Notes: generated by a model from the letters alone, not told the origin. 63,900 nucleotides of DNA, filler included, from Octopus bimaculoides (GCF_001194135.2; 8 parts of 6 records of this genome joined end to end with filler, not necessarily neighbours in it), one strand, 5' to 3'. Positions 26,708 through 63,726 are shown, counted from the whole stretch's first letter. Translations and numbers: made by a program.

Positions 26708-26751
26708 ACACCTAATGAAGGCTGGAGGGTATATCAGACGAAATGCTGTGT
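26708..26751 (+). ncRNA. Degenerate type I hammerhead motif
   Basis: ACAC-CTAATGA-A-GGCTG..CAGAC-GAAA-TGCT-GTGT; stems I and II are recognisable, but G5 and the cleavage triplet are mutated. Confidence 0.5.
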
Positions 26752-26789
26752 TAACAACAAACAAGATGAGGACAAATATCCGTCAAGTG

Positions 26790-27066
26790 TAAATATAGAA
26801 CTGTATTGCCCCATTTATTCCACAGTCTTCAAAATCATTTGGACGAAAAAAATATAAATTCTGTAGACAAGGTCAGAACAGTACTGGAGTTCAGAACAAT
26901 ACAAGGACAAGTGAATTTTGGAAGAGGGGCCTTGCAAGTCTACCACATAGACAGAAGAGCATTGTAGAAAATGAAGGAGGGTATATTTTAGATTAAAAAG
27001 GAACTTTATCTTAATTTTGAAAAATAAAAGAAGTAAAAAAAACGCATTATTTATGGGATGACCCAA
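26790..27066 (+). mobile_element. Mariner 3' fragment with right TIR
   Basis: Frameshifted HLDEKNINSVDKVRTVLE..ENEGGYILD C-terminus; ends TTATTTATGGGATGACCCAATA|TA. Confidence 0.7.
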
Positions 27067-27205
27067 TATATATATTACACACACACATACATATTTTAAC
27101 TTGGCAGTGAATGTTTTTCTTCGCTATTTTTACTGCAAATTAAATTTTTCAGAAAAAGCAATGACATTTGGAAGGAGAAAAAAAAACAAAAACAAAAATC
27201 TTTAC

Positions 27206-27280
27206 CTTTCTTCCCAATGTGTTGGTAAAAATATTCTAAACTTTCAGCACGGCTTCTTCGACTCATAAATTCAAATATAA
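27206..27280 (-). CDS. Candidate internal exon (75 nt), gene unidentified
   Basis: Acceptor tacttctttttatttcAG and donor AAG|GTAAAG; the single open frame reads IFEFMSRRSRAESLEYFYQHIGKK (phase 1 to 1). Confidence 0.55.
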
Positions 27281-29713
27281 CTGAAATAAAAAGAAGTACA
27301 TGGTAAAATCTGAAGAATCTGGAAACTTCTTGGGGAAAAATATGAATATTCTATGGCAAACTGATGTTAGAGTTCTTTTTTGTATATCTTCTCTAAGATT
27401 GGTTTCTTTTAGCACCAAGAGATCTTTATCTAAATATCTTTACTGATACAATCTCTTGCAGGCTATAAATATACTTGGACCATGAAGGTAACCTTGGTGG
27501 TAAGAACTTGTACCTCATTTTACTAAAATCATCAACAGGTTGGAAACCACCTATGTGAGTATGTGAGCAGGTAGTGTTGTCTAAATTTGGCAGTGTCGTT
27601 GGCTCAGCAGAAAGTCTGAAGACTCCTGGTAGTTATACACTGTAGAATGAAATGCAAGAAAAGTCTTTCATTAAAGATAAATAAGTTAAACCATAATTTC
27701 TAGGAATGATAACAATGCTCTGCTTGCTGGTTTACTATCTTTTAAAACCTTTCACCACCACAACCATCTAGATTCACACAACACAACTCCAAAAAGCATT
27801 TAACTGAAAACCAGATGCAGAGGCTCTGTTCACAAAACTATTGTAGGATTGTAATCTCCAATAGCTACTAAGATTATTCAGCATAAAATGATATTTTATA
27901 TACTAAATATAGCCAAAGGACAAAAATATGAAAATACCTGTCAAGGTAGTGGAGTAGTCCTGGTCACTAAATACAAATATGGTAGAGTCTCACAAATGTA
28001 ATACAGTGGGTGAGTTGATAAACCTCAAGAAATAGAAATTATTGTAATAATTACTAGACAAAAACATCCTCTAGGCAGTCTTTGATTTGCTGATGGTAAA
28101 GAGGAATGCTAAACCTTGTCAATCTTATTGATTGTTGGGTAGGGAGAGGGGCTTTGAAGGTCCTTACGTATAGCCCTCTTTTTCTAGAACATATATTTTT
28201 ATTAAAAAGGGGAGAGAATGTTCACAAGATCTGTTGATTTAAACTTTTGGACAACCTGAGGAACCAGTTTTAGTAAAATGCGCAGAGATAATTTTGAAAT
28301 TAACTTGAATTGACATTAACAATTTTTTCATTATATTTAATTAATGGCTTAGTCAGTGGGTAAAAAGCATGTGGCTTAGTGGAGAGGATGTTGCACACAC
28401 ACTCACTAGATCATGGCATCATGCTTTCAGTTCCCAGACCAAGTGGTGTGTTGTGTTCTTGGGCAAAACACTTTATTCCACATTGTTCTAGTCCACTCAG
28501 CTATACACAAGTGATCCTGCAGTGAACTGATATCTCATTCAAGGGAAATATGATCTCAGTCATTTAGATACCAAGAAAACTAGGTAACCATTCCAATGAA
28601 TCCTAGAACTTGAGGCAGAACTTAATTTTTAGTCACTGAAAGAAAGGAACTGCCAATGACCTATTTCAGAGCCTCTGAGATTGAGATGGAAGAGGTGGAG
28701 AAAGTTATTCTTGGGAAGGAAATTGGTCTAAATACTGTTGAAGATACCCAAGGGTCAGATAGTGGAATTAAACTGAGCTACAGAATACCTCTCTCTTCTA
28801 GCTTACTTGTTTTAGCCATTAGACTACAGCCATTCTGGGGCACCACCTTCAAGGGTTTTAGTCAAACAAATCAACCGCAATAAATATTTTTTTTTAATCT
28901 GGTACTTATTCTATTGACTCTTGTGCTGAACTGCTAAGGTACAAAGATATACACAGATTAACATGGGTTGTAAAGCGGTGGGGTATACACAAGCATGATG
29001 GGATTCTACACAGTATCCATCTATTAAATTCACACACAAAACATTGATTGACTAGGGGATACAGTGGATGACATTTGCACAAATACCGCACAGTTGGACT
29101 GAACTCAAAACTAGGTGGTTGCAACGTGACATTCTTAACAACACAACCATACCTGCACATATATAGGAAAAATCTTATATGGAAATTGTTGTTGTTGATA
29201 TTTAATCCTACTTCAACCTTAAAAGAACATAACTATAAAGGGATGATAAGAGATATGCAGAGATATATATCAAAAAGTGATGCTAAATTATTAGAAGATA
29301 AGAGAGAGATGCAGTGATAAATATTTGGAAGACCTTGAAGGGTCTAATGCCCAATTTTGGAATTGACAGCTATACTGTCCTCAAACTGGACTGCACTGCA
29401 TCTTCCCCATCTAAAATAAGGACACAGTACTGCAACATTCTGAGTTTCAATAATAAGTAACTACAAGTGGTGAACCAGTGTGGACTCAGCCCCAGGCTGA
29501 AACCAGTAAAAGAAACACTATATATATATATATATATATANNNNNNNNNNNNNNNNNNNNNNNNNNNNNNNNNNNNNNNNNNNNNNNNNNNNNNNNNNNN
29601 NNNNNNNNNNNNNNNNNNNNNNNNNNNNNNNNNNNNNNNNNNNNNNNNNNNNNNNNNNATATATGGATAATAACAACAAATGGAGCAAAACGCATGTTGA
29701 TGAAAGTTACTTT

Positions 29714-29805
29714 AATTCCTACATATATGTTTCGAAACAAATGAGTGCCCTTTCACAAAGAAGAAAGGGTTGCTGGAGTCCTCATTTATTTCCCATCAGG
29801 GAGTT
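29714..29805 (-). ncRNA. Type I hammerhead ribozyme candidate (A9G, long stem II)
   Basis: AACTCC-CTGATGG-GAAATAAATGAG..CTCATTTGTTTC-GAA-ACATATATGT-A-GGAATT. Confidence 0.75.
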
Positions 29806-30589
29806 CATAATAAAACATGTAATAGCAAGACAAAAACGAAATAATGGGGTAACTTACGAGCTGAGATGTTACATGGTCAGTGACCATTAGAAGGTTTGTT
29901 TACATAGAGTTATAACGGGCTCAACGATATTGTTCCATGGGCTTTAGGAAGAAGAACACTAGTTTACATAGAAATATAAAGGGAGGGTGTTTTTGATGTG
30001 ATACTAAAGGTTGAGGTCAAAGAGTTATTTGGATATGGGGAGATGATTATAGTGAATGTTTACATATGTGTTTGCTAGCGCGCAGACACATATGTACAAA
30101 CACGTGCGTGTACGCACATACACATGCACATATGCATACACCCATGTACACATACCCACATACACCCATACACATATGTACATACACGCTCACCTATACA
30201 TACATGCCTGTATATATACCTACATTCCTGTATATATACAAACATGCAAATACCCACACCCGCACACACATACATACGTATATATGCACATACACACACA
30301 CACACATGCATGTATATATGTATATACACCTACATATGCTCCATCATTCCCACATAGCTCCATCATTCCACTAGGTTAGGTTCCAAGCAGTATTTTTATT
30401 ATAGTTATTATCAATTTTTCTTTTTTTTTTCTTTTTTTTTTTTACTAATATCCTATGAATAATTTCCACTTCTTCATCCACCACAACTTACCTTTTCCTC
30501 TTCTATAGTTGATTAATTTTTTCCTTCCCATAATTACAGCTAAAGCTACCTTGTATCACCAACTGCTTTGCCATAGATCTGACCTTCTC

Positions 30590-31720
30590 CTTATTAGCCT
30601 GGGCGACCAAGTTAGTAGTGGGGGTGGGTGCGCTGAAAGTGTAGCTGCTAGAATAAGAATAGCCTGGGCAAAGTTTAGAGAGCTCTTACCCCTGCTGGCG
30701 ACAAAGGGACTCTCACTCAGAGTAAAAGGCAGACTGTATGACGCATGCATACAAACAGCCATGCTACATGGCAGTGAAACATGGGCTGTAACTGCTGAGG
30801 ACATACGTAAGCTCGCAAGGAATGAAGCCAGTNNNNNNNNNNNNNNNNNNNNNNNNNNNNNNNNNNNNNNNNNNNNNNNNNNNNNNNNNNNNNNNNNNNN
30901 NNNNNNNNNNNNNNNNNNNNNNNNNNNNNNNNNNNNNNNNNNNNNNNNNNNNNNNNNNNNNNNNNNNNNNNNNNNNNNNNNNNNNNNNNNNNNNNNNNNN
31001 NNNNNNNNNNNNNNNNNNNNNNNNNNNNNNNNNNNNNNNNNNNNNNNNNNNNNNNNNNNNNNNNNNNNNNNNNNNNNNNNNNNNNNNNNNNNNNNNNNNN
31101 NNNNNNNNNNNNNNNNNNNNNNNNNNNNNNNNNNNNNNNNNNNNNNNNNNNNNNNNNNNNNNNNNNNNNNNNNNNNNNNNNNNNNNNNNNNNNNNNNNNN
31201 NNNNNNNNNNNNNNNNNNNNNNNNNNNNNNNNNNNNNNNNNNNNNNNNNNNNNNNNNNNNNNNNNNNNNNNNNNNNNNNNNNNNNNNNNNNNNNNNNNNN
31301 NNNNNNNNNNNNNNNNNNNNNNNNNNNNNNNNNNNNNNNNNNNNNNNNNNNNNNNNNNNNNNNNNNNNNNNNNNNNNNNNNNNNNNNNNNNNNNNNNNNN
31401 NNNNNNNNNNNNNNNNNNNNNNNNNNNNNNNNNNNNNNNNNNNNNNNNNNNNNNNNNNNNNNNNNNNNNNNNNNNNNNNNNNNNNNNGGTGGCACATAAA
31501 AGACACCACTTCGAGCGTGGCCGTTTTCGTGCGGGTGACACGTAAAAGCACCCACTACACTCTCTGAGTGGTTGGCGTTAGGAAGGGCATCCAGCTGTAG
31601 AAACTCTGCCAAATTAGATTGGAGCCTGGTGTTGCCATCCGGTTTCACCAGTCCTCAGTCAAATCGTCCAACCCATGCTAGCATGGAAAGCGGACGTTAA
31701 ACGATGATGATGATGATTAT
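30590..31720 (+). mobile_element. RTE-clade LINE 3' part with (GAT)n tail (gap inside)
   Basis: RIRIAWAKFRELLPLL..MLHGSETW; 3' UTR ends GGAAAGCGGACGTTAAAC(GAT)n; near-identical to 39430-40115. Confidence 0.88.
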
Positions 31721-32422
31721 TATTATTTCTCAGCTAACACCCTATACCTAATCGTAATATTTTTTATAGTCTTAAACAAAACACGTGTGTATTTGGGTAC
31801 ATATATGCATACGTGTGTTTGTGAGTGTGTGTGAGGGTGGACGTGTGTGGGTGTGTGAATGGGTACATGTGTGTGGGTGAGTATGTATATGTGTGTATAT
31901 TTATACATACATACAAGTGTGTATATATATACAAATGGGTGTGCGTGTGTGTATGTGCATATGTAGGTGTGTGCGTGAGTGGGTGTTTGCCCGTTTGTAT
32001 ATATACAGGAATGTATGTATATAAACAGGCAAGCAAGTAAAGGTGCACATGTGTGTGCACATGTATATGTGAAGGTTTCGGTATGGGTGTGTGTGTGTTT
32101 GTGTTTTTGTGTATGTGTGTGAATGGGTAGGTACACATAAGTATATGTATATGTGTATATGTATGTGCGCACATGTACGAGCACGGGGCGTGTGTGTGTG
32201 TGTGTGTAAGGATGCAGGTGCGTGCGTGTATGTATATATATATATATATATAATAATTTTCCAGAGGATGTAGCAACCGTTAGAACTTACCTTAGGGGAT
32301 CATTAACTAGATTCCTTAAGGGTCGTTCTCATAGTTTATATTTATATTATAAGGTTTTTAACTTTTAAATTTTCATATTCAAAAGAGACAGAGACTTTAA
32401 ACTCGATATATCGATTTATTCA

Positions 32423-32506
32423 CCACTCTATGTTAACATTTCTGTGCCAAACTTATCCAGTGACTGGTCCATTGGATTTTGACATTTGGCACTTCTTCAG
32501 GAGTGG
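32423..32506 (-). ncRNA. Type I hammerhead ribozyme candidate with canonical core
   Basis: CCACTC-CTGAAGA-A-GTGCCAAA..TTTGGCAC-A-GAA-ATGTTAACAT-A-GAGTGG; stem I is a perfect 6 bp, stem II has 8 bp, stem III is palindromic. Confidence 0.82.
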
Positions 32507-32761
32507 TTACCATCCGAACAAAACACGAAAAAACACATACATAACTATCATTAAATTCTTAAAATCCCGTTAGATTTCATCTTTGTTATTATAGGGGAGA
32601 TAACTCCTTAATTTTCTATTTTTATTGNNNNNNNNNNNNNNNNNNNNNNNNNNNNNNNNNNNNNNNNNNNNTTAATTAATTAANNNNNNNNNNNNNNNNN
32701 NNNNNNNNNNNNNNNNNNNNNNNNNNNAGAGAGAGAGAGAGAGAAACAAGAAGAGAATATA

Positions 32762-32803
<42 letters not shown>

Positions 32804-33044
32804 GTAGTGTAGTGAGGATAGCAAAAAGGAAGTTGCACCAGCTAACAGTATTGAAGGAAATGGGATGGTTTTATTTCATAAATAAATAAATACACACACA
32901 CACACATATATACATACATATATTTATTCATTTATATGAGTGTGTATATGTGTGTATGCATGTAGCATGTATGTATGTACACATGACCGTTGACTGAACA
33001 CTATTCAATTTTTTTTCTCCGTGTTTTTCTCCTTGTCTCCGTAT

Positions 33045-33081
33045 TCTTTCTGTTGAAGAGCGTAGCTCGAAACGTCAAAGA
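33045..33081 (+). ncRNA. Minimal type I hammerhead motif (A6U) in a PLE pseudo-LTR-like repeat
   Basis: TCTTT-CTGTTGA-A-GAG-CGTAG-CTC-GAA-ACGT-C-AAAGA. Confidence 0.7.
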
Positions 33082-33488
33082 CTTTCCGTATTCCCGAGCG
33101 TCATACTAATATATACTTTTGTTATTTACACCACCTGTCCTCGTCTGTTGTTATTTTTTGTATATTCTCCCCCCTGTATATACTTATACATGCATACGTA
33201 CACATACGCACAGTCCGCCCTCCCATTCACACACACACCTACACACACACACACATATACCAAAGATAACAACAAGTACCGGGCTGCTTGATCTGGAGGT
33301 GCTAAATAGCCGATTTCCCTTCCTTTCGGAATTGTACGCTGCCATTATTATTGACCATTTGCTTTTAGGAAAGTTGTTGAAGTTTTTGACTGAATATCAT
33401 GTTAAATTATCAGCTAAGCAAATTACAAACAACCTACAGGAAATCCTTGATATATTTATATTTATATACACACCAATACGCTACACAC

Positions 33489-33522
<34 letters not shown>

Positions 33523-34418
33523 NNNNNNNNNNNNNNNNNNNNNNNNNNNNNNNNNNNNNNNNNNNNNNNNNNNNNNNNNNNNNNNNNNNNNNNNNNNNNN
33601 NNNNNNNNNNNNNNNNNNNNNNNNNNNNNNNNNNNNNNNNNNNNNNNNNNNNNNNNNNNNNNNNNNNNNNNNNNNNNNNNNNNNNNNNNNNNNNNNNNNN
33701 NNNNNNNNNNNNNNNNNNNNNNNNNNNNNNNNNNNNNNNNNNNNNNNNNNNNNNNNNNNNNNNNNNNNNNNNNNNNNNNNNNNNNNNNNNNNNNNNNNNN
33801 NNNNNNNNNNNNNNNNNNNNNNNNNNNNNNNNNNNNNNNNNNNNNNNNNNNNNNNNNNNNNNNNNNNNNNNNNNNNNNNNNNNNNNNNNNNNNNNNNNNN
33901 NNNNNNNNNNNNNNNNNNNNNNNNNNNNNNNNNNNNNNNNNNNNNNNNNNNNNNNNNNNNNNNNNNNNNNNNNNNNNNNNNNNNNNNNNNNNNNNNNNNN
34001 NNNNNNNNNNNNNNNNNNNNNNNNNNNNNNNNNNNNNNNNNNNNNNNNNNNNNNNNNNNNNNNNNNNNNNNNNNNNNNNNNNNNNNNNNNNNNNNNNNNN
34101 NNNNNNNNNNNNNNNNNNNNNNNNNNNNNNNNNNNNNNNNNNNNNNNNNNNNNNNNNNNNNNNNNNNNNNNNNNNNNNNNNNNNNNNNNNNNNNNNNNNN
34201 NNNNNNNNNNNNNNNNNNNNNNNNNNNNNNNNNNNNNNNNNNNNNNNNNNNNNNNNNNNNNNNNNNNNNNNNNNNNNNNNNNNNNNNNNNNNNNNNNNNN
34301 NNNNNNNNNNNNNNNNNNNNNNNNNNNNNNNNNNNNNNNNNNNNNNNNNNNNNNNNNNNNNNNNNNNNNNNNNNNNNNNNNNNNNNNNNNNNNNNNNNNN
34401 NNNNNNNNNNNNNNNNNN

Positions 34419-34473
<55 letters not shown>

Positions 34474-35093
34474 CATCTATCAGTTAATCAATTAATTTCT
34501 CTATCTCTCTATCTCTCCCTTTTCTCTATCTCCCTTTTTCTCTATCTCTCCCTTTTTCTCTCTCGATACATGCATACATACATACATACATACATACATA
34601 CATACATACATACATACATACATACGCACGCACACAGAGCAATCTTCATTTTAGGATGCTAACACAACCAGTTACTTTTCGAATACTTTTCCCACTATCT
34701 TCTAAGAAAATTGATTGAGCAACATCGTCATGCAATTCTTATTTATTCAAGCGAGAAATTCAACTGACACATTATTGAAATCAGCCGATCTTAAGCGACT
34801 GGACGTTGTTCTAATTTTAAGATTTTCATTTCCCATTGTAGACTTTCTGGAGCTCTTTATGTTGTGTCGTTTCCCCTCCATAATGGGCTCCACTCCAGCA
34901 GAAGTCGAGAACATATAGCTTGATAGCAGCACACCGGATTGCCCGTGAGGACTGCGTAGGACCCCTTTTTCGTCGTTGAATAAATAAAAGGGAATTGTAG
35001 GTTTTATTGTTGTTACTCTTGTTGTTGTTGTTGTGCTTGTTGTTTTTTCATCTTTTTCGTCCACACCTTTTATCGATGCTGCCATTTCCCGAG

Positions 35094-35150
<57 letters not shown>

Positions 35151-35706: not shown

Positions 35707-35744
35707 GTAATAATAATAATAATGATAATAATGATGATGATGAT

Positions 35745-35933
35745 AATGGAGCTGCTATCAGACTCGAAGTTATCCAGAAGACAGCGTTGTTGGGTACAAC
35801 TCGCATTTTAAGGAGAGTATTGTCTCTTTGAGTCAGAGGAGAAGAAGGCACTATTTGAAACCTTTGGTGATTTGTTATTGCCTGCTTTCAAGTAAAGAAC
35901 AACCGGTAATTAAGAACTATCCGAGAGTCTTTC

Positions 35934-35990
<57 letters not shown>
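35745..35990 (+). mobile_element. R4/Dong-like LINE 3' end with (TAA)n tail
   Basis: IRLEVIQKTALLGTTRILRRVLSL*, then a UTR, then (TAA)n. Confidence 0.75.
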
Positions 35991-36232: not shown

Positions 36233-36288
<56 letters not shown>

Positions 36289-36310: not shown

Positions 36311-36312
36311 AA

Positions 36313-36720: not shown

Positions 36721-37590
36721 CGGACGCTAAACATCGTGAGTGCAACACACTTACCACCAGGCCATGAACCTTCTAATAATTCCTAATAGTTCATTGTTCA
36801 TTCCTAAAGAGGTCATTGGGTACTTAACACTAACGATTATTGTTTGACATAATACAGGCTGGATCACAGTAATCTCTGCTTATTCGTTCCAGTTTCATTT
36901 TATCAATTGTGGCTGATAAAACGAAGCAATTTCAATAAGAACAATGTAAATAGCTTGCTTATCAACCACAAGGTTATGGGTTCAGTCCCACTGCGAAGCA
37001 CCTTGGGCAAGTGCATTAGATTCCTTGGAAGAAAGCAACGAACGTATACGAAAACAAGGACGGAAAAAAACAAAAACTCAGAGAAATGTTACACAAATAC
37101 AAATAACAGGTGTCTTTCGACTAAGGACGAATTAAATTAAGCTGGTGCGTGTGGAAGTAAAGCCTTAGGTGGTGCTCCAGCATGACCGCCATCAAATGAC
37201 TGAATTCAGTAAAAGAAATGAATGCAATATATAATCTAAATTATATGAAGACAGAAAATTCCTTAATCTTTAATTTTTTCCTTATGGTAAATATGTTAAC
37301 ACGCCGCTATCAGTTCAGTGGCGCCCTCTATAAGACCTCTAATAGCATTTCTGGCTCGTTTTGCCTATTGTAGCTGAGGATGTCAAAGATAAATAACCCT
37401 TAGCTGATTGAAAAAGATTGAAAAAGAGAACCGTAACTATATATGCACGACAAACAGTCAAATTCTCATAGAAATGGCAGTGACCGTGTTGTATTATCAT
37501 TGCTTAGTCTCACTCAGCCCTGAAAAGGCAGCGCTATATTCGAAGACCATAGCATCAGTGATGGTTCTGAGATTAGAAAAAAAAACAGCC

Positions 37591-37674
37591 AACAACTGAT
37601 GAGGAGTCGTTCTTTATGCTGTTTGTTTTGCTTTCCGTTTGTGTGTTTCGTTGTTCGAAACAATAGTTCATGTT
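37591..37674 (+). ncRNA. Degenerate type I hammerhead-like motif
   Basis: CTGATGA at 37596 and GTTC-GAAAC-AATA-GTT at 37653-37668; stems I and II are poorly paired. Confidence 0.35.
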
Positions 37675-37736: not shown

Positions 37737-37772
<36 letters not shown>

Positions 37773-41924: not shown

Positions 41925-43801
41925 GTTCCCATAACTTGACCGTAGGGTGGAGGTCGATATGTTCGACTAAACAGATCAAAGCGGTGGTTCAACAAGACTG
42001 AAATAAGTGAAAGAAAGATGACATTTTAACGCAAAGTTTTAATTTTGATCTTTTCAAAACAAAAAGTTTGTATTGTAGAAGCCAGAGTAGTCTCAGTTCA
42101 GTTTGATAGCAAAAGGATTTTCGCCAGCGAAGTAGAATGTGTGGAGGAGGTAGTTNNNNNNNNNNNNNNNNNNNNNNNNNNNNNNNNNNNNNNNNNNNNT
42201 TAATTAATTAANNNNNNNNNNNNNNNNNNNNNNNNNNNNNNNNNNNNNNNNNNNNTATATATATATATATACGACGAGCTTCTTTCACTTTCCGTCCACC
42301 AAATCCATTTACAAGGCTTTGGTCGGTCCAAGGCTAGAGAAGAAGACACTTGCCCAAGGTGCCACGGAACAACGTGGTTGGGAAGCAAGTTTCTTACCAC
42401 ACAGCCACGTTTTAATTATTTCCAGGATATGAATACCTCTTAAATACCTGTCAACATACAAGTTCCCCGGTTTTATCCAGTGTATCAGTGAAATACTAAA
42501 AGTTATTAGCTTCACATTGATAGATATGGTAGTATTACCATTTACGTATAAGAAAAAGAAGAAAATGAAGAAATTGACTTATAGACATCAATTTATTGAA
42601 ACAAATCCAATTTCGAACAATATCAAACTCATAGAACCTACAATTGTTTCCATGTCCAATTACTTCAAATTATGAAAATTAAATTAAAGATTGATAATGA
42701 ATATAGTTAATTGGACATTTCGCCAGGGTCAGAACTTGATAGAAAAAAATGTGTTGATATATCATCGGTAGACTCGGGCACTTATGCATTCTAACGTATT
42801 TTTTTAAAAAACCGTTACAACCTAGTTCATTAAGATAATGCTTTTGTGGCTATAGAGTTGTTTTGATTCGCATTTCTTGCAATACTGGTGTTGATTAGCG
42901 CCCTTTGTTCACTTTAGTAACGTATATATTTCTGCCTTAAGGTTTTCATTCGAAAAATAACAAATAAAAGCATGTTTGGTCATTTATATAACGCCACAAC
43001 GATTTGTAATTACCGAGAAGTGATTAAGCTAATTAAATAACAATGATTTTTCGTGAGACCTACCGATATAACTCTGTGTGCTGTCTTCAACAGCCATTCT
43101 CATTTGAAGATGGAGAAAAATGGCATTAACTCCCGTAGAATCTGATAGCTTTTTTTCTTTTTTTGTTAGATTTGCCTGCATTTTTGTATAACGCTAGCAA
43201 AAAGTTCTATAAACCATTTGACAAGAAAATTTCAGTTCTCCAATTGATCTGATTGTCTGAGCCACGATTACATGAATTTAATGCCTTTTATAAGAACCGT
43301 GGTCTGAAGTTGGGAAATTTGGTCATCTCATTGCAACATTTTATAAGTTTAGTGTTTGTAAATGCAGTTTTTTAAGATTTGAAATAATAATAATAATTAG
43401 TCAATAACAAATTTCGATATTCATGTCTAAATTTTAAGGATAAATGTTTATGGTAGCATAGCATTGAATTTTAAGGATAAATGTTTATGGTAGCATAGTT
43501 GAATATATAACATTACTGGATTCTCTTTAGTTATTCAAATAAAACTATCATTTATTATAATCCCAGGTTATTAGCGTAAACCGTTAATTGGTCAGGTAGT
43601 AAACTATTGATGGGAAATGAAGTGACTTGCTGTTAGCTTCCTCTTTTAGTTCATACATTCAATGACGCTATCGTTCACTTATACACGGATACATATATCT
43701 ATACACACACACATACACACACACACACGTACATGCATACACATATACATATATACACACACGTATATGCAAACATACACACACGCACACATGCACATAC
43801 G

Positions 43802-44388: not shown

Positions 44389-44673
44389 GTAAGCTTTTAT
44401 CTTGCATTTTCTTCTTTTTCTTCTCTTTCTCTCTCATTCTCTCTCTCACACACACATACATACACACACAAATGCACACACACAAATGCACACACACAAA
44501 TGCACACACACACACACGTACACTAATATCAAATGCATATATTTCTGTCATATCTGAGGTTTACGATATATATATATATATAGTTCAAAAACACAATAAC
44601 AAAAAAACAACAAAGTGAGGACGTGATATGGATAGTATTATTGGACGCTCAGGAAAGGAAAGAGAGAGTGTAT

Positions 44674-44703
44674 GACGTTTCGGGCGTAGCCCTTCGTCGG
44701 AAA
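44674..44703 (-). ncRNA. Minimal hammerhead motif (U4C, eroded stem I) in a PLE pseudo-LTR-like repeat
   Basis: CCGACGA-A-GGGC-TAC-GCCC-GAA-ACGT-C. Confidence 0.6.
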
Positions 44704-46220
44704 GATGGAAAGTTCGGAGAATGGAAGAACGGAGAAAGAGGAAAATGGTACCGATGCCCACGAGGTTACATACATATATACATACGTATGTATGTATGTG
44801 TGTATGTATGTATGTATGTATGTATGTATGTATGTATGTATGTATGAATGTATGTATGTATAATATAATAAATGTGAAGACTAATTTCTGTATCAATGTG
44901 TCACACTTTTACATTTTTATCCCCTCTCTCACTATTCAATGACACTTCCTTGTGCTGCGGTGAGAATAATAGTAGGCATAGAGACGGTGAAGGCCGTGGC
45001 GACGGCAGACAGAGAGAGAGAAAGAAAGAAAGAGAGACAAAGAAAGTTAGGGATAGTTGATGATGTTTTATTAAAAGTAGTTGATAGTGGCAATGGGAGT
45101 AATAATAAGAAAGAGATAGGGCGGGTATGTGAGAGAAAGAGAGAAATGATGTACAGCTTTCCTGGAGAGAAATTCCAGTGGACAGCACACTGAACCAACT
45201 ACTGAACACTATCATTTTTGTTTTATTTTTTGCTTTCTTTAATACATATGTGTGTGCGCGTGTGTGTGTATGGGAGTGGTGTTTGTGTACATATATACAT
45301 ATCTATATACATACACACACACATATAAAATACACTTTAATTGAAAAACAGTTTACCCAGAATTAAACATATTTAATAGAATAAATCTGAATGTCAGTGT
45401 GTCAGTGTATCAAACGTTTTCAACTTTATTCCTAGAGGCCGTAGCTCAACATATACCATTTGGAATCAGGCTGATTTCGTGAGTAAATTAAAAACATTTC
45501 GCGCCGAATCCGGACCTGCAATCCTGAAATTTTGGATTTCTATGTTTTCATTACTGCGATTGTTTCCGGCGATTTTTTTTACATGATTTTTAGCGACGAA
45601 TATGATCATTATTGGGATATGACTCTGATGGAAGCAATTGCAACAAATTCTCCAAAACAATTCCGAGATCTGTTTGTAGATCTCCCCATTTGGAGTTAAT
45701 TGCTTAAAAGCTACATACTAGCTTAAAAACCGCCCTGTCGGGCGGCTTTTAAGTTAGTGTGTAGCTTTNNNNNNNNNNNNNNNNNNNNNNNNNNNNNNNN
45801 NNNNNNNNNNNNTTAATTAATTAANNNNNNNNNNNNNNNNNNNNNNNNNNNNNNNNNNNNNNNNNNNNATTGGGTTTTAAGGATGTTTATTTTATTCAAT
45901 ATTGAAACCAGATGCGTTTGTTACAATAATACTACTTGTTCGGATGCTAATTAAAATGGACACCAATAGATTTTCTTCTATCGATCTTGTGTGGTGTCTC
46001 AGATTATTATCTCTAAGTTCGATGGATCGTTCGTTTTGTAACATTATTGATTTATGTAACAACTATTAAGCATTCGTGAACTCAACCATTATTTTTCTCT
46101 TGATGTATATTGTAACACACACGCACACACATACACATACACTGACACACACACAAATATATATATATATATGTATGCATGTATGTATATAAATAAATGT
46201 ATATGTATATGTGTGTGTGT

Positions 46221-51206: not shown

Positions 51207-51888
51207 ACGAGGGGCTGCGTGCACTCCAACATTTCCTTAACCTTCGATCCAACCCCCAACCCGACACCTCCACACTCGTTCGTCTGGCCGTCTCAACTGC
51301 TTCTCGTTCGCGGGTGATTTCTACCAGCATTTCTCGGGAGTGGCCATGGGAACGAGAACGGGCCCTAACTATGCGAATCTGTTCGTTGGCTACGTTGAGG
51401 CCCAAATATTCTCAAGTTTCACTGGTCCCACTCCCGAATCATATGGCCGTTATATTGACGACTGTATCGGTGCGACCTCACTCTCCCACGAACATCTAGA
51501 CTCCTTCCTCTCTGTTGTCAAATCTTTCCATCCTGCCTTCCACTTCTCTTGCACTATCTCTGACACCTCTGTCTCCTTTCTTGACATTTCGGTCAGCATT
51601 CATCACTCCACTCTCACCACTTCCATTCACTACAAACACACAAACTCACACTCGTACCACAACTTCTCCTCCTCCCGCCCTAAACACACCAATCTTTCCA
51701 TCCCCTATTCCAAATTTCTCCGTCTACGGAGGCTCTGTAGTAACGACCATGACTTTGAGACTCAGTCTCAACTCATGGCTCGCCACTTCATCCTATGTGG
51801 ATATCCCCTCACCACTATCCACACCACCCTTGCCAGAGCACTTCCGTGGATCGTGCATCTGCTCTCTCCCCCCGAACCCACCCCGCCG
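51207..51888 (+). mobile_element. Penelope-like element, RT/thumb fragment (second family), bounded by gaps
   Basis: AMGTRTGPNYANLFVG, YGRYIDDC, FLDISV and SIPYSKFLRLRRLCS motifs. Confidence 0.9.
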
Positions 51889-55300: not shown

Positions 55301-55577
55301 NNNNNNNNNNNNNNNNNNNNNNNNNNNNNNNNNNNNNNNNNNNNNNNNNNNNNNNNNNNNNNNNNNNATTATATCTAATAAAATTAAAATATTTAAATTA
55401 GTTTATCACAATTTTTAGTAACATTATTGAATTATTTCCGTCATGAAAAGAAGCGTTTAATTTTTTTCCCCATTTAAAAAAATTCATAAATTTAAGTAGG
55501 TGTTTCATTTAAATTTGTCGCACTTGTGATGTTAGCTTAGAGGACTTTGTTTCATCTGCTTTTTTTAATTCATTCCA

Positions 55578-55651
<74 letters not shown>

Positions 55652-56349
55652 CATTATTATTATTATCTTGATCTGTTTGATCTTACTTTTTCCTACAGCT
55701 ATTTTTATATATCCAAAGCTTGTAAACAGATGCGTGATATTTTTTTTTCTTTTAAGAATGGAGCACTTGGTACAATGTTAAATCCTCCAAGACTAATGGG
55801 TTCGATGGAGTTTATTTTGAGCTACAAATTTCACCGAAAATCGTTGACAGTAAAGAAATTACAGAGGTTTGCGACTGTATGTAAAAATGACTGAAAAAAT
55901 GTTTGTGAGACGGGAAATACTTTGCGAGATGAGACAGAGTATGGATGATTAGAAAGCTAGAAACAGATACATTAATTAGGCTTAGCAGATGGTGGTAATT
56001 AAATTCTAACTTCAGAGAGGCATAGGCTGTTATAGTTTCAAGTAGAAGTTTCAGGAACAAGAAAACAGTCCGAGTGTAGACTTGTTGTGATATCGTATTA
56101 GTAATGAGTCTTTGCCAATCATCCGAGTTACATTTTATCACACCGTGAGCAGTATTCGATAGATGCGCAATTCAATTTCAATTTCTGTATGTGATACTCT
56201 CCATTTTTTACGTGTCTTGTGTTGTGCCTGTTAATCTCCGTAAATCTTAATCGTNNNNNNNNNNNNNNNNNNNNNNNNNNNNNNNNNNNNNNNNNNNNNN
56301 NNNNNNNNNNNNNNNNNNNNNNNNNNNNNNNNNNNNNNNNNNNNNNNNN

Positions 56350-58560
56350 TGAGTTCATGGTTTAAAATATTTACAAACACCAAAATTGGTTATGCATTCA
56401 TATTCAGGAGTGGTTTGTATTTTTCAATAAATATATTCTCTCTATTTAAACTTTCTTATATAGAAACTGTTTCCTTGCACTGGTAGATGAGGAAAACCAT
56501 GAAGTTTGGTTGGATATTCCCTGCACAGCTCTCTATGTGTTCACTCAATGGTATCTGTCTATTCCTTGGGAAACGGATCTGTCCCTTATGGCTTATATAG
56601 TTATGTCTACAACATGAATTAAATTTTTCGATTCACAAGATAAATTGGTCTTAATTGTGAATCTCTGTCCATGTTTGAAATGGAATTCCGAACCTTCCAG
56701 TAAGATGAGGCATGTTCCACAATTTAGACGTCCACATTTTTTAATTATTGATTTCTTTGTTGTTGAGTATAGCTTCGCATTTGTCAGAAGTATTTTTAGT
56801 GATTTGGGTTGTTTTTTACATTTGATGAATTTGTGTGTTTGCAGAATGTGGTTCATCTTTGAATCCCTAGTAAACATTGGTAGATTTTGAATAATGGTGT
56901 TGTTTGCTTCGTTGTTTCTAGGGTTGTGTGTCGATATATAGGATAGTATTTTTTGATGAGGTGTGGGATTTCATTTTGTTCCCCTTAGTGTTTTGGTGCT
57001 TACCTTCTTGACACGTTTAATTCCATCATCTATAAGTGAGGGTGGATAGTGTCTCTCGACTACTGTTGTTCTGAGGTCTTTAAGTCGAAGGTCCCGAGTA
57101 TTTGCATCAGAAACTATTATGCAAATCATTTTCGCTAAATTAAAAGGAGTATTTCTTTTGATGCGTTTCGGGTGGTATGAACTAAACAGAAGATATTGCT
57201 TTGAGTCTGTTAGTTTATGATAAATATCGGTTGCAATTTGGTTGGTGCCTTTTTTCTATCAAAATATCTAGGAATGCTAATTGTTCTTTGCTGTACTCCA
57301 TTGTAAACTGAATATTTGAATTTATACTATTTACTAATGATTTAAATTCGAAAAGTTTATTAATGGTCTCATTCCAAATGATAAAGCAGTCGTCCAGATA
57401 TCTTTTCCAGTTTTCTCTTGTATAAAGGTAAAATGGGTATCCATATTTTTGCAGTGATATTTCATATATGGTTAGTTCTAAATATCCCTTTATTAGGTTC
57501 GCAAGAACTGGGGATGCTTTTGTTCCCATCACAATTCCACATTTTTGTCGTTAGTGAGTATCATCAAATAGAAAGTAATTGTTCTGGAGAACAAATTTTA
57601 AAGTTTCAATAATAAAATTCTGGTTCGTGCATTCCGGAAGTTATTCGGGAATAATTTTCCAGCCAGAATTTTATTGTTTCTATTCCATAGTAGTGTGGGA
57701 TATTGGTGTATAAATTAACGATATCGAAGGAAACCATGATTGTCTCTTCAATAATTGTTTTCGGTAAGTGGTTTAGCATATCTAGATCGTCTCTAATAAA
57801 ATTTTTGATATGTTTCAAAAGAGGTCTCAGTAAGATTTCTAGAAAGTTGCTTAGGCGGTGGGTTTCACACGCTGGACCAGCTATAAAGGGTCTTAACTTT
57901 AAATCTTCTGGTGCTTGGATATTGATGTATATGCCTGGTGATTATTTGCAAGCTTCATTAATTATCTGGCACTTATGTATTTTAGGTAGGCCATAGAAAA
58001 TGCTAGGTCTGCATTTAAAGTTCCTTTTCTGTCAGACCTTTTCCTTGTAGATGAATTTAGGGCACAAAATTTTTCATTGTTTTTTGTTGTTTACAGTTTG
58101 CAACTTTTTGGTAGAAAGTATCGTTTTCTAACATTGAGAGTACTAGGTTTTTGTAGTACACTGTGTCCATCAGGACTACAGCACTTCCTTCTTTGATTGT
58201 CAGCTCCTCGTCGTTCTGCAGTTCAATTAGATTGTTTTCCATTCTATATTGTTGAGGTTTGAGTTAATTCTTCGCTTGTGTTAAGTATTCGGGAAATTCA
58301 GGATATAGTCGCGGAAGTCACTTACCGTTTTATTCCTACCTTTAGGTAGAAGATAATTGCTTTTGTTTTTGACCAGTGGTTCATCCTCGTTTTCGTAATC
58401 AACTAATGCTTTTGTAAGCCGTATTTTCTGCAAAATTCCGTAATACTGTCTTTAATTTCATTCTGATTCGATCTACGAAGTGTTGGGGTAAATTTTAAGG
58501 CGGCTAAAGAATGGATGCATGCATTTGTTGTTTTTGAATATTTGTATATGTTTTATTATG
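56350..58560 (-). mobile_element. Near-full-length decayed Penelope-like element (RT plus GIY-YIG)
   Basis: SFDIVNLYTNIPH, MGTKASPVLANL, WKRYLDDCFIIW, FLDILI; Cys-rich linker KKCGRLNCGTC...FTIKTNLSCESKNLI before the GIY-YIG region. Confidence 0.92.
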
Positions 58561-58586
58561 ACATTTTGTATCTTATATTATTGTTG

Positions 58587-58644
<58 letters not shown>

Positions 58645-58951
58645 TATAGGGAGAGAGAGAGAGGAAAGAGGCGGCGAGAGGGGGAGAGAGGGGGATAACA
58701 GAAGTTGGAAAATCTATAGGTAGTAGTTATTCACCATTACACATGTTTCATTTGTTAATAGGAATTACAAATATACACGCACACATATGAATATGAATAA
58801 AAAGAACCATGCACATGTACAGATTTAGAAGGATATAAATAAGTTTATTCATGTAGAGCTTCACAAACATAAGTACATACAAGCATACTCATATATACCG
58901 GTGTATATGTATATATGCATACACAACTCTACTAATACATACAACACATAC

Positions 58952-58985
<34 letters not shown>

Positions 58986-59560
58986 TCACATACATACATA
59001 CTGAGATATATATACATAAAGACATGCACATACACGCACTCATATATATACTTGTACATAGACTCATGTACATACATATACGCGCACACACATACACGCA
59101 CATTCACACACGCACATTTCTATATACACAAATATTCGTATATACTTATATTTATATATACATACAAATACATATACACAATCACACACTCATATATACA
59201 CCCACAAGATCATACATATACACATTTACTTGCATACATCAACACACGCCAAATATGAACGAAGGATATAATAGTTACATGTATCTTTTTGATACGACAA
59301 AAATACAGATATATGTATGAAAAAATATATAAGTAAATATAAAAATAAGACTCAATTTTGCCATGGGAGAAGGAAGAAATATAGATATGTATGTATACAA
59401 ATAACAAAGAACAAAAATATTAATAGTAACCGTAATACCATCTATATGTCTATATGAGTAGACAATCATAAAATCACATACATGTACGTATACAATTTAT
59501 TGGACATAAGCGCAACATTTGAAGAAGTGTGTATGTATATATATATATAGAGAGAGAGAG

Positions 59561-59631
<71 letters not shown>

Positions 59632-59780
59632 CATATATATACATATATACATATGCATATATNNNNNNNNNNNNNNNNNNNNNNNNNNNNNNNNNNNNNN
59701 NNNNNNTTAATTAATTAANNNNNNNNNNNNNNNNNNNNNNNNNNNNNNNNNNNNNNNNNNNNAAATCATAACTCTGTTCC

Positions 59781-60041
59781 GAATCCAGGTAAAAAGTCAC
59801 AGGTGAAAAAGTCACGGAAAAAAAGTCACTGGGGTTTTATCCGGGTGGGGGGTTGTCCGAGGAGGTTTTGTCCTAGTGTGGTTTTGTCCGGTTTCCATAA
59901 ATCAATTGTGACTTTTTTCCTGTGACTTTATTACCGACCACCATAAATTAATTGTGACTTTTCCTGTGACCTTTTTTCCTAGCCGATATATCGTAACTTT
60001 ATTACTGTGACATTTTATCCTGTGACTTAATTACCGGTCAC
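59781..60041. mobile_element. MULE-type foldback MITE with 9-bp TSD
   Basis: CTCTGTTCC duplicated at 59772-59780 and 60042-60050; AAAAAGTCAC repeats on the left and GTGACTTTT repeats on the right. Confidence 0.75.
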
Positions 60042-60188
60042 CTCTGTTCCATCTGGGGACTAAACGAACAACAATTGCAACAACAACGACGAAGATAACT
60101 ACAATAGCGACGACGATTACAACATCAATGACATAATGGATTGTAACTTAGACACAAGGCCAGTAATTTTGAGGGGCGAGGGTTAGAT

Positions 60189-61141
60189 TAGTGGTTCTCA
60201 ACCATTTTTTTTTTGTTCACGGATCCCTTCGATTCCTATTTTAATCGGGTGGACCGATTATAGCTACTGAATGTTTAAGAAAAATCCCATTATATTTCTA
60301 GAATTAAATATTAGGAATTGCCTAAAAAAATGTGAAGATATAGGCACAGGAGCGGCTGTGTGGTAAGTAGCTTGCTTACCAACCACATGGTTCCGAGTTC
60401 AGCCCTACTGCGTGACACCTTGGGCGAGTATCTTCCACTGTAGCCTCGGGCCGACCAAAGCCTTGTGAGTGGATTTGGTAGACGGAAACTGAAAGTCCGT
60501 CGTATATATGTATATATATATATATNNNNNNNNNNNNNNNNNNNNNNNNNNNNNNNNNNNNNNNNNNNNNNNNNNNNNNNNNNNNNNNNNNNNNNNNNNN
60601 NNNNNNNNNNNNNNNNNNNNNNNNNNNNNNNNNNNNNNNNNNNNNNNNNNNNNNNNNNNNNNNNNNNNNNNNNNNNNNNNNNNNNNNNNNNNNNNNNNNN
60701 NNNNNNNNNNNNNNNNNNNNNNNNNNNNNNNNNNNNNNNNNNNNNNNNNNNNNNNNNNNNNNNNNNNNNNNNNNNNNNNNNNNNNNNNNNNNNNNNNNNN
60801 NNNNNNNNNNNNNNNNNNNNNNNNNNNNNNNNNNNNNNNNNNNNNNNNNNNNNNNNNNNNNNNNNNNNNNNNNNNNNNNNNNNNNNNNNNNNNNNNNNNN
60901 NNNNNNNNNNNNNNNNNNNNNNNNNNNNNNNNNNNNNNNNNNNNNNNNNNNNNNNNNNNNNNNNNNNNNNNNNNNNNNNNNNNNNNNNNNNNNNNNNNNN
61001 NNNNNNNNNNNNNNNNNNNNNNNNNNNNNNNNNNNNNNNNNNNNNNNNNNNNNNNNNNNNNNNNNNNNNNNNNNNNNNNNNNNNNNNNNNNNNNNNNNNN
61101 NNNNNNNNNNNNNNNNNNNNNNNNNNNNNNNNNNNNNNNNN

Positions 61142-61189
<48 letters not shown>

Positions 61190-61517
61190 TGTATGTGTTT
61201 GTGTGTCTGTGTTTGTACCCCCATCATCGCTTGACAACCAATGCTGGTGTGTTTACATCCCCGTAACTTAGCGGTTCGGCAAAAAGAGACCGATAGAATA
61301 AGTACTAGGCTTACAAAGAATAAGTCTTGGGGTCGATTTTCTCGATTAAAGGTGGCGCTCCAATATGGCCGCAGTCAAATCACTGAAACAAGTAAAAGAG
61401 TAAAGAGTATATTTGGTAGAAGGATAGCAATTTATTTCACATAAATTTTAAGAAAAGAAAAAAAAATATCTGATATGGACTCTTAGGGGTCATGTGGACC
61501 TTGGTTGAGAACTATTG
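60189..61517. mobile_element. hAT-like MITE interrupted by a CORE-like SINE (about 60340-61410)
   Basis: TAGTGGTTCTCAACC left end and GGTTGAGAACTATTG right end, with SINE head and tail in between. Confidence 0.65.
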
Positions 61518-61814
61518 GGTCAGACGATCTTGTCTTTACATTAAGCCAGTTGGAAGCCCTCATTTGCGACGAATGATACAAGTCAGACGATAGCCTCGCC
61601 AGCAAAAGATGATAGGCTGTCGACCTAAAGCAAGCTGTGCTTCCTCAATTAGGCTCTAATATTCACTATTTTACTTGTCTCAGTCATTTGACTGCGGCCA
61701 TGCTGGAGCACCGCNNNNNNNNNNNNNNNNNNNNNNNNNNNNNNNNNNNNNNNNNNNNTTAATTAATTAANNNNNNNNNNNNNNNNNNNNNNNNNNNNNN
61801 NNNNNNNNNNNNNN

Positions 61815-62014
61815 CTTACTTCCTGTTTCTGTTGTGCCTGTAATTCAAAGGGCCAGCCTTATCACACTGTGTCACGCTGAATATCCCCGAGAACTACGTT
61901 TAGGGTACACGTGCTCTGTGGAGTGCTCAGCCACTTGCACGTTAATTTCAGGAGCAGGCTGTTCCGTTGATCTGATCAACTGGAACCTTTGACATCGTAA
62001 GCGACGGAGTACCA

Positions 62015-62066
<52 letters not shown>

Positions 62067-62075
62067 TTACTACTA
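61815..62075 (+). mobile_element. SINE-like 3' region ending in (TAC)n
   Basis: GC-richer non-coding segment ending GACGGAGTACCAAC(TAC)n; 5' end lost at the linker. Confidence 0.45.
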
Positions 62076-62848
62076 CAAGTCACCAGCAAAACCATCGCAA
62101 CCACTATCACCATCGTAAAGCTGAAGATCCAACCACCACACACTGCAGGCTCACAAAAACCTCGAACAAGATTATCCGAGCGATCAGTAGTAAAATACTC
62201 CCTCAGCAGATGTTGAAAGTCTTTATTAATCCTTTAGCATTCGGATTACTCTGTTAACCCTAGTGTTCATTTGTTCACATTGTTTTGAATTAATCGTGTA
62301 ATTATCTCGTAGCTTCGAGACTTCGATGATGTGATCGTTTATTTTTAGAATGACATTGTGAGACATGTGTGAGAAGTTGGATCTGGTCAGTTTTAACATG
62401 ACAAAGGAGAATATTTGGGTCTGATATGGCACGGGAGACAATTCCAACGAACTAAGTTGATCACATTAATACAAATTTAAGTCGATATATTGTTCAAGGG
62501 TTCTCAACCGGAGTTGATATGACCCCTGAGGGTCCATATAAGATTTGGGGTGAGGGTTCGTGCAACAAAAGAGTAAATTGGGGGAATTACAATAGTATTT
62601 TAAGGGCACTTGAAAAAAATTTGCTTTAGATGTATGTATCAGTATGCTTTGCAAGAAACAACTTAATTTCTTTCTCAAATGTTTTACATAGTTCAACCTA
62701 CACAAATGAATGTGTGAAAACAAAATAGGAATTTTGAAAGAAGTTTCTATAAAACTAGTTTTTAAACATCAAATGGCTATGGCGGGTCCACCAGAAGAAA
62801 ATTGTAATCAAAGGAGTACTTAGATAAAAAAAAAAATGGTTGAGAACC

Positions 62849-63014
62849 ATAGGCGCAGGAGTGGCTGTGTGGTAAGTAGCTTGCTTACCAACCACATGGT
62901 TCCGGGTTCAGTCCCACTGCGTAGCACCTAGGGCAAGTGTCTTCTACTATAGCCTCGGGCCGACTAAAGCCTTGTGAGTGGATTTGGTAGACGGAAACTG
63001 AAAGAAGCCCGTCG

Positions 63015-63051
<37 letters not shown>

Positions 63052-63278
63052 CTGTGTTTGTCCCCCACCCCCAACATCGCTTGATAACCGATGTTGGTGT
63101 GTTTTCGTCCCCGTAACATTAGCGGTTCGGCAAAAAAAGACCGATAGAATAAGTACTAGGCTTACAAAGAATAAGTCATGGGGTCGATTCGCTCGACAAA
63201 AGGCGGTGCTCCAGCATGGCCGCAGTCAAATGACTGAAACAAGTAAAAAGAGTAAAAGAGTAAAAGAGTAAAGAGTAA
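62849..63278 (+). mobile_element. Complete CORE-like SINE, inserted into the right TIR of a hAT-like MITE (62495-62848)
   Basis: Head, body, internal (TA)(TG)n and (AGTAAAAG)n tail; the MITE TIR stops at GGTTGAGAACC. Confidence 0.88.
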
Positions 63279-63614
63279 CCCCTGATATAGAGTCACTATT
63301 CCAGCAACTAATACTCTACTCAGACCAATAAGAATAAAATAATCCAAAACGTCCACTGGTTAATCACGGTTGACTAATAATGTTTTTTACTATCCAACTT
63401 ATCCTTCATTTATTTTATTAAATAATTCTTCCCTTGCATATTTAAGAATTGTTATTATTTATTTTTTGTTTTTTTACCCTTTTTATCTTCTTTCTTTACC
63501 TTCTATGTTATCTTATTTCTATTTTACTTTATTGTATCTTTACTAACATCTATAACTCACTAGCTAAATACATAAGCATCAAGAAAAATATTAACTTTTG
63601 TTCAATAAACTCAT

Positions 63615-63726
63615 AAAGCTGTGACGAGATTCTGCCCTATATAGTTGAAAACGATATCATTTCTTAGCAATTGCTTAGAATTACGTATCACCTAGGGGCA
63701 TGAATCGAAACATATATGTAGGCTTT
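63615..63726 (+). ncRNA. Type I hammerhead ribozyme candidate (C3G, long stem II)
   Basis: AAAGCT-GTGACGA-GATTC..GAATC-GAA-ACATATATGT-A-GGCTTT. Confidence 0.72.

Follow-up and report, generated by a model that had tools for sequence, protein, structure and literature searches.

We analyzed a 63.9-kb stretch of Octopus bimaculoides DNA (the whole of which is called the window here) and found that it holds seven type I hammerhead ribozyme folds. With a probability of about 0.7, we read them as single, mostly mutated hammerheads in short, unrelated units that are likely the 3′ pseudo-long terminal repeat (pseudo-LTR) ends of several families of Penelope-like elements (PLEs), the fold at 26.7 kb forming the tail of a high-copy, tRNA-headed repeat that has likely taken over an end of this kind. 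The folds are most likely solo, 5′-truncated pseudo-LTR ends. Such ends are a known phenomenon: in animal genomes, PLE minimal hammerheads mostly occur singly, and solo copies number in the thousands (PMC4209133). Two variants go beyond this phenomenon and are probably undescribed, namely, hammerheads whose stem II is long and a tRNA-headed repeat that is abundant and ends in a hammerhead of PLE type.

Detection of hammerhead folds

A strict type I descriptor identified 6 sites, 5 of them with a palindromic stem III, compared to a mean of 0.17 (maximum, 2) in 60 local dinucleotide shuffles. With a relaxed score, the sites at 32500, 29799, 42726, and 63621 reached 14 to 21; in 25 shuffles, sites scoring ≥14 averaged 0.12 (maximum, 1). 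Motif frequency was thus above that of shuffled sequence by either measure (6 versus 0.17 and 4 versus 0.12), a comparison that an earlier note on this DNA had suggested. That note had listed seven type I topologies. Six of them hold, with C3 of the core at 26712(+), 29799(−), 32500(−), 33050(+), 44700(−), and 63621(+); the coordinates given earlier were those of stem I or the cut site, and the C3 positions differ accordingly. A seventh fold, at 42726(−), had been overlooked, and the site listed at 37591(+) was rejected.

Core positions are numbered here by the established scheme for hammerheads. The boxes stand in type I order at 7 sites and are fully intact only at 32500, with 1 or 2 changes in each of the other six copies. 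Stems I and II close the core at 26712, 29799, 32500, 33050, 42726, and 63621, and stem I is broken at 44700. A short palindromic stem III is found in 6 of the 7 folds (it is mutated at 26712), and the five palindromic stems named earlier are all present. Palindromes of 8 to 10 nucleotides (nt) are predicted to form self-duplexes of −6.4 to −9.4 kcal/mol and do not form a hairpin alone. On the sole criterion of folding energy, 32500 and 63621 stood out (z scores of about −2.4), and the remaining folds did not.

No coding open reading frame (ORF) overlaps the folds, where the open frames are made by repeats or gaps only. Four sites had been described as lying before a (TA)n tract. This is so for three, at which (TA)4+ begins 69 nt (37.6 kb), 91 nt (44.7 kb), and 140 nt (63.7 kb) after the site, while at 29.7 kb we found only a TA-bordered assembly gap beginning 61 nt after it. 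Relative to a 7.7% background, 3 of 8 sites correspond to a P value of ~0.02 and 4 of 8 to ~0.002, with a distance window that was chosen post hoc.

Rfam, which lists 235 hammerheads in the giant squid (PMC6962438), gave none in this window: the hammerhead models proposed earlier as a check matched nothing among 150 of the 160 window matches listed or in three local scans. The long-stem-II folds described below imply that animal hammerhead counts are underestimates. A literature search returned no octopus PLE hammerhead and no PLE-dependent tRNA-derived short interspersed nuclear element (SINE); Repbase, Dfam, and the supplements of SINEBase and of a retrozyme preprint (bioRxiv 10.64898/2026.07.22.740005) lay outside this search, and any of them may already describe the family.

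Two structural types of hammerhead

The folds fall into two structural types. The minimal type (26712, 33050, and 44700) has an extra A after A9, a G10.1-C11.1 pair, and a 4-nt palindrome, features that make up the published PLE consensus (PMC4209133). The long-stem-II type (29799, 32500, 42726, and 63621) has a stem II domain of 51 to 79 nt and a stem III palindrome of 8 to 10 nt.

The best-preserved hammerhead (32422..32507, − strand) belongs to the long type. It combines an intact core with a 7-bp stem I, a 51-nt stem II, and a 10-nt palindrome, is predicted to be cut at AUA after 32429, and has the hammerhead itself as its minimum-energy structure (z score, −2.4). The hammerhead at 29804-29715 (− strand; 59-nt stem II, 10-nt palindrome, predicted cut after 29720) carries an A9G change that is private to this copy and lies in a repeat unit of ~395 nt (29660..30055, − strand), present in ~200 to 440 copies and placed here between TA/gap and CA-rich repeats. 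The previously overlooked fold (42635..42730, − strand) has A6G, a 69-nt stem II, an 8-nt palindrome, and a predicted cut after 42639; that at 63615..63726 (+ strand) has C3G, a 79-nt stem II, a 10-nt palindrome, and a predicted cut after 63720, with its (TA)n tract 140 nt downstream.

Among the minimal folds, that at 33045-33081 (A6U; predicted cut after 33076) sits in a ~190-nt unit between microsatellites (32985..33175, + strand), and that at 44705-44669 (U4C; broken stem I) sits in a unit of ~180 nt with (TATG)n on one side and (TA)n on the other (44582..44762, − strand). An imperfect direct repeat flanks the latter unit and may be a target duplication. The third minimal fold, at 26.7 kb, is considered below. 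A self-comparison of the window revealed no homology of the hammerhead units to one another or to the window PLEs; 29.8 and 63.6 kb share just the stretch from GAAA to stem III, and 33.0 and 44.7 kb are loosely alike. No second copy of any fold was found within the window and hence no tandem units.

The rejected candidate (37596..37670, + strand) has both core boxes and no stem I pair. Its score of 8 is at chance level (3.2 such sites per shuffle), and it is listed by neither covariance model, leaving core boxes of an unconfirmed hammerhead. Upstream of it, at 37505-37575, another CUGA-like box has paired flanks. The unit in question ends in (TA)n at 37740, and this box may belong to a hammerhead of that unit in a more advanced state of decay.

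A tRNA-headed repeat with a PLE-type hammerhead tail

The earlier note did not recognize the 26.7-kb fold as the tail of a tRNA-headed, high-copy repeat. The 3′ part of the tRNA-like head (26577..26622, + strand) holds an anticodon-like arm and a B box at 26600. The 5′ part (26509..26574, − strand), with the A box at 26568, is inverted and duplicated in the window copy (26545-26574 and 26509-26538); 2614 DNA reads run on upstream of 26577 and show this head, with its A box, in the normal orientation. When the head was turned back in silico, the A-to-B spacing was 45 nt, and with relaxed thresholds, ARAGORN called a degenerate tRNA at 2 of the 3 junctions tried. ARAGORN found 0 tRNA genes in the unmodified window, and no tRNA was among the Rfam window matches listed. 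The head is followed by an (AAT)n tract and a short body of ~50 nt (26623..26706, + strand; DNA depth, ~5,800), by a minimal hammerhead (26707..26752, + strand) with the extra A after A9, G5A, U16.1C, a stem II mismatch, and a predicted cut after 26747, and by a 3′ tail of ~50 nt (26753..26795, + strand). Shortly past 26795, the copies part into AT-rich sequence; 5214 DNA reads have loose ends behind this position.

DNA depth is 520 at 26494, and 2614 reads enter the head at 26577; because depth at 26494 is only 520, most head-bearing copies exclude the upstream repeat. The element is ~250 nt long, noncoding, and dispersed, with ~10^4 copies by read depth, so it has the size and copy number of a SINE as well as a tRNA-derived head with A and B boxes. 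No T4 run occurs in 26577-26800, which is compatible with transcription by RNA polymerase III (Pol III). The element has SINE anatomy with a PLE-type end, and these features suggest that it may be a SINE mobilized by a PLE reverse transcriptase (RT). A partner PLE sharing its tail was not found among the PLEs compared. Ohshima and Okada are said to have described, in 1994, the tRNA-derived SINEs OK, OR1, and OR2 of octopus; the 26.7-kb family may correspond to OK or OR1. Directly upstream of the head, 26363-26508 is moderately repeated (depth, 200 to 520); it could represent either flanking sequence from a source copy or an extended version of the element.

We tentatively propose, at somewhat less than even odds, that a tRNA-headed SINE of ~10^4 copies has a hammerhead-bearing PLE 3′ end as its tail, that it would be moved by PLE RT/GIY-YIG and not by a long interspersed nuclear element (LINE), and that its fold would function mainly as a handle by which the enzyme recognizes it and less as scissors. 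The same proposal includes a class of PLE hammerheads with a 50- to 80-nt stem II that Rfam and published descriptors miss.

Relation of the folds to PLEs

From 122 loci with PLE proteins, we obtained 24 distinct hammerheads and built covariance models from 13 of them (4-nt palindrome) and from 10 (6-nt palindrome). The training hammerheads of the 4-nt-palindrome model, which were chosen by a pairing descriptor, covary: 93% of cells are paired, and in 8 of 9 pairs both partners vary. At the 122 loci, a sense hammerhead lay within 700 nt in 16 of 79 ORF rows with room, and an antisense one in 0 of 79 (strict descriptor; the rows include duplicates and non-RT ORFs). The 4-nt-palindrome model, built from loci outside the window, ranked 33050 (E value, 2e-6), 26712 (0.004), and 44700 (0.09) as the top three of 11 window matches, the E values being rough. 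The three minimal folds are therefore like the hammerheads of bona fide PLE loci. With the 6-nt-palindrome model, only 33050 fell below an E value of 0.1 in the window.

In a tree of 44 RT rows (4 of 45 loci were omitted for short RT overlap), two window PLEs fell in a 13-row clade (support, 100/99), and 6-nt palindromes were found in 7 of the 11 other rows. Since 7 of 11 clade mates carry 6-nt palindromes, the longer palindromes fit a clade that is present in the window. Hammerheads of this clade usually lack the extra A, and the base of their stem II is often mismatched, a pattern shared by 32500 and 42726. The 4-nt palindrome type, as at 26712, 33050, and 44700, was found in 10 of the 30 remaining nonwindow rows. 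A Neptune/Nematis-type C-x4-C-x2-C linker is visible in the RT alignment.

The window itself holds a broken PLE RT ORF (16482..17917, − strand), which is 3′ truncated and has no adjoining hammerhead, and a frameshifted PLE RT and GIY-YIG ORF (56393..58528, − strand), whose 3′ untranslated region enters a gap ~50 nt past the ORF; both long remnants thus lack a readable 3′ end. A PLE RT fragment of another lineage (51209..51864, + strand) is flanked on both sides by assembly gaps. The named proteins nearest to these ORFs are molluscan RT/GIY-YIG proteins, at up to ~70% identity. No GIY-YIG or RT remnant adjoins any fold in the window. The earlier identification of the folds as solo PLE termini is upheld by type (PLE consensus, PLE-flanking model, and ~190-nt blocks at 33.0 and 44.7 kb), though not by direct linkage.

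Two observations on the fetched loci stand apart. A well-supported PLE clade (L058, L060, L063, L065-L068, L072, L073, L075, L076, L084, L087, and L089) has CUGAUGA, a short stem II, and CGAAACC 270 to 430 nt after the ORF; the descriptor gave no local NUH/stem I closure there, and the hammerhead is possibly atypical or discontinuous. Forty-five animal-type PLE loci (L001-L045) lie in prokaryote genome bins and are most likely host contamination. No PLE relative was found in the viral contigs searched, and exact-motif scans of viral and metagenome contigs gave 0 copies of the window hammerhead motifs.

Core mutations and read data

Core changes were G5A and U16.1C at 26712, A9G at 29799, A6U at 33050, A6G at 42726, U4C at 44700, and C3G at 63621, that is, 7 changes in 77 invariant positions (9%) as counted from the sequences, the search itself having fixed GAAA. 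This rate matches the divergence of the reads (mostly under 95% alike), and every change is different. One DNA run, two RNA runs, and the contigs of a relative were mapped on 26360-30050. At 29793, the canonical base was present in 128 of 128 DNA reads, in every read of the two RNA runs (29 of 29 and 25 of 25), and in the relative's contigs, so the 29.8-kb family has a canonical core. Because all 128 DNA reads carry this base, the variant core at 29.8 kb represents decay. At 26.7 kb, two contig fragments (organism B) have letters that re-form either the stem II pair or the palindrome, and each fragment carries a further change. The variant cores are best read as neutral decay; the earlier suggestion that they form a repertoire is not supported, the 29.8-kb family having a canonical core in the reads.

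DNA depth was ~5,800 to 6,500 over 26608-26855, 140 to 300 over 29708-29955, and 0 to 0.4 in most unique bins. With a 2.8-Gb genome (assumed from PMC13282606), this corresponds, as orders of magnitude, to 8,500 to 9,400 copies of the 26.7-kb family and 200 to 440 copies of the 29.8-kb family at ≥80% likeness. RNA depth was equal in both read directions, and the RNA/DNA ratio was 0.12 to 0.31, versus 0.22 to 0.29 for neighboring repeats. RNA 5′ ends at the predicted cut sites had been named as a check; no pileup was seen at 26747 or 29720 in the 2 RNA runs, where detection needs a fifth of the local depth and is thus insensitive. The single pileup of RNA ends (7 molecules, at 29935) is not at a cut site. 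These data, from standard cDNA libraries that may lose short or circular RNA, suggest passive cotranscription of the units. RNA editing was rejected, as A>G counts in the RNA runs (47 and 39) were lower than that in the DNA run (60).

Comparison with known systems

The hammerheads of PLE pseudo-LTRs (PMC4209133) resemble those described here in being type I and mostly single, with CUGANGA plus one extra base, G10.1-C11.1, and palindromic 15.2-16.2. Palindromes of 10 nt are listed there for Aedes and Saccoglossus, mollusc examples are Lottia and Crassostrea, and no octopus entry was found in the part of the supplement searched. Stem II loops in the rows compared are ≤~9 nt, whereas four window folds have stem II domains of 51 to 79 nt; such long inserts have no precedent at the fetched PLE loci or among the supplement rows compared.

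Like the 26.7-kb element, Schistosoma Sm-alpha and Sj-alpha (PMC6765202, PMC8490949, and PMC6155905) are short noncoding repeats in which a Pol III promoter is followed by a type I hammerhead. Sm-alpha differs in having a canonical, fast hammerhead and in being often tandem, while the hammerhead of the octopus element is minimal and of PLE type and the element has no tandem partner at its locus. A Drosophila willistoni hammerhead family labeled "SINEs" forms 450-bp tandem arrays (PMC4209133, Fig. S5). Because of Sm-alpha and this family, the combination of promoter and hammerhead has precedent. Non-LTR retrozymes (PMC7229834; bioRxiv 10.64898/2026.07.22.740005) are likewise noncoding hammerhead units of 150 to 400 nt, probably moved by PLEs, but are defined by tandem units, canonical hammerheads, and circular RNAs. 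tRNA-derived SINEs with a partner tail (SINEBase, PMC3531059) share the tRNA head, body, and tail, a length of <700 bp, and a high copy number. The tails listed there, however, come from Bov-B, CR1, and L2 LINEs, and the words "Penelope" and "ribozyme" are absent from the text of that paper. The O. vulgaris annotation assigns 6.83% of the genome to PLEs, and "hammerhead" and "ribozyme" are absent from its supplement (PMC13282606).

Octopus Naiad PLEs share (TA)n targeting, and two cephalopod Naiads are marked "HHR_half_core" (PMC8557442 supplement). A Naiad origin of the long folds is not supported: the window motifs are absent by eye from three octopus Naiad 3′ ends in that supplement, and motif searches gave 0 matches, although line wraps can hide matches. 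Independently of this, the 3′ ends of two octopus Naiad consensus sequences in the same material have a GAAA box ~25 nt before a CUGAUGA box, with paired flanks. By eye, the boxes thus resemble those of a hammerhead in permuted order, whereas published descriptions have Naiads lacking canonical hammerheads.

Proposed mechanism

In the mechanism that we propose, target-primed reverse transcription of a PLE would start 50 to 140 nt 3′ of the cut site and would often stop early, so that only the pseudo-LTR end would be left, often in (TA)n-type repeats. Targeting of (TA)n and microsatellites by PLEs is discussed in PMC8557442. Where source elements carry hammerheads in tandem, a palindromic stem III would allow two of them to cleave as a dimer, and dimer cleavage is established for PLE hammerheads (PMC4209133). 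The window copies are predicted to be inert because they are solo, without a partner in cis, and because six of the seven have core mutations. The tRNA-headed repeat would be made by Pol III, with the monomer staying mostly uncut; its uncut, hammerhead-bearing tail would recruit the PLE enzyme in the way that ordinary SINEs present a LINE tail.

If so, seven hammerheads in 37 kb mainly reflect the amount of PLE debris in the genome. A dispersed SINE with a PLE-type tail would, if true, widen the rule that SINEs ride on LINEs, and it would offer thousands of natural copies in which to study the question, left open by PMC8557442 and PMC4209133, of why a slow ribozyme that depends on dimers is retained by PLEs. 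Should the fold be preserved in young monomeric copies, for which dimerization in cis is impossible, it would matter for recognition.

Alternative explanations

Several results weigh against the assignment to PLE ends. No hammerhead at related PLE loci has a stem II over ~21 nt, for which reason the long type is assigned to PLEs by stem III alone, and the four long folds were not recovered by the 6-nt-palindrome model, which cannot span long inserts. A PLE ORF remnant lies within 5 kb of 0 of the 7 folds (the nearest, counted in the window only, is 5.1 kb away); the earlier idea that PLEs in this window mobilize the folds is not borne out, given this distance and the state of the remnants, which are 3′ truncated, gap ended, or between gaps. 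The comparison was confined to the window and the fetched loci, and no family was tied to a named PLE. Neither a target duplication nor a TA tract was found at the 26.7-kb copy. The mapped reads cover two of the seven folds, and the DNA run has library type "other," so that depth may be biased (unique depth was below the expected 0.7).

Against this background, the units might be monomeric offspring of non-LTR retrozymes, tandem repeats elsewhere in the genome whose self-cleavage yields circular RNAs that a PLE enzyme would then insert. Unit sizes of 180 to 400 nt suit this idea, retrozymes occur in mussels (PMC7229834), and retrozyme families include monomer copies and derive from PLE pseudo-LTRs (bioRxiv 10.64898/2026.07.22.740005). 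We consider it unlikely, as the window has no tandem or second copy, none of the 15 of 200 joints listed leads back over either hammerhead unit, the RNA-to-DNA ratios are not above those of the neighbors, and three folds are minimal while retrozymes carry canonical hammerheads; the earlier view of a retrozyme in the published sense of tandem units falls for the first of these reasons. Chance matches in AT-rich repetitive DNA are the least probable explanation of all. They would account for the lack of an Rfam match, for folds that are mostly not unusually stable, and for the chance-level score at 37596; the enrichment over shuffles, the ranks in the PLE model, and the canonical base restored by reads at 29793 refute them for 32500, 29799, 42726, 63621, and 33050 and, less strongly, for 44700. 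It is very improbable as well that the host maintains the folds as active ribozymes whose cores are novel. The intact core and hammerhead minimum-energy structure of 32500 speak for such a view, but the 9% rate of invariant changes matches read divergence, each change differs, and RNA ends did not pile up at 26747 or 29720, within the sensitivity given above.

For the 26.7-kb element, two further readings compete with a SINE that took over a PLE end. It could be the 5′-truncated end of a longer PLE pseudo-LTR with an inserted tRNA-like piece, given that the upstream 140 nt (26363-26508) is also repeated, at a depth of ~200 to 520, and that depth climbs toward the 3′ end. We doubt this because of an at least fivefold step (from 520 to 2614 reads) about the start of the head, as if most copies begin there, and because of A and B boxes at tRNA spacing. 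Alternatively, the repeat could be an ordinary LINE-dependent SINE with the hammerhead as a captured passenger. Known SINEs depend on LINE enzymes (PMC3531059), LINE RT remnants are present in the window, and the tail was matched to no PLE; however, the loose ends (agreement, 0.54) give no sign of a poly(A) or tandem-repeat tail, and a PLE-type hammerhead lies ~50 nt from the 3′ end, as in the other units, which leaves this reading with little probability. A SINE with a borrowed PLE end remains our preferred description of the element.

Other features of the window

The window has a GC content of 34%, 5,980 N, 87 tandem-repeat rows, and numerous dispersed repeats. About 250 nt past the broken 3′ end of the PLE remnant at 16482..17917, a perfect 84-nt palindrome lies inside a 76-nt duplication (16103-16262). 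Abutting the tail of the 26.7-kb repeat, 26803-27071 is probably the 3′ remnant of a DNA transposon, presumably of mariner type by its family motif, with an RNA/DNA ratio of 0.7 to 0.9, about three times that of neighboring repeats. Further high-copy, SINE-like families occupy 28344-28591 and 28803-29163 (~1,400 to 2,700 copies by read depth) as well as 10003-10546, 14663-15022, 60324-61412, and 62847-63262. The TA-rich middles of several SINE-like families in the window coincide with assembly gaps.

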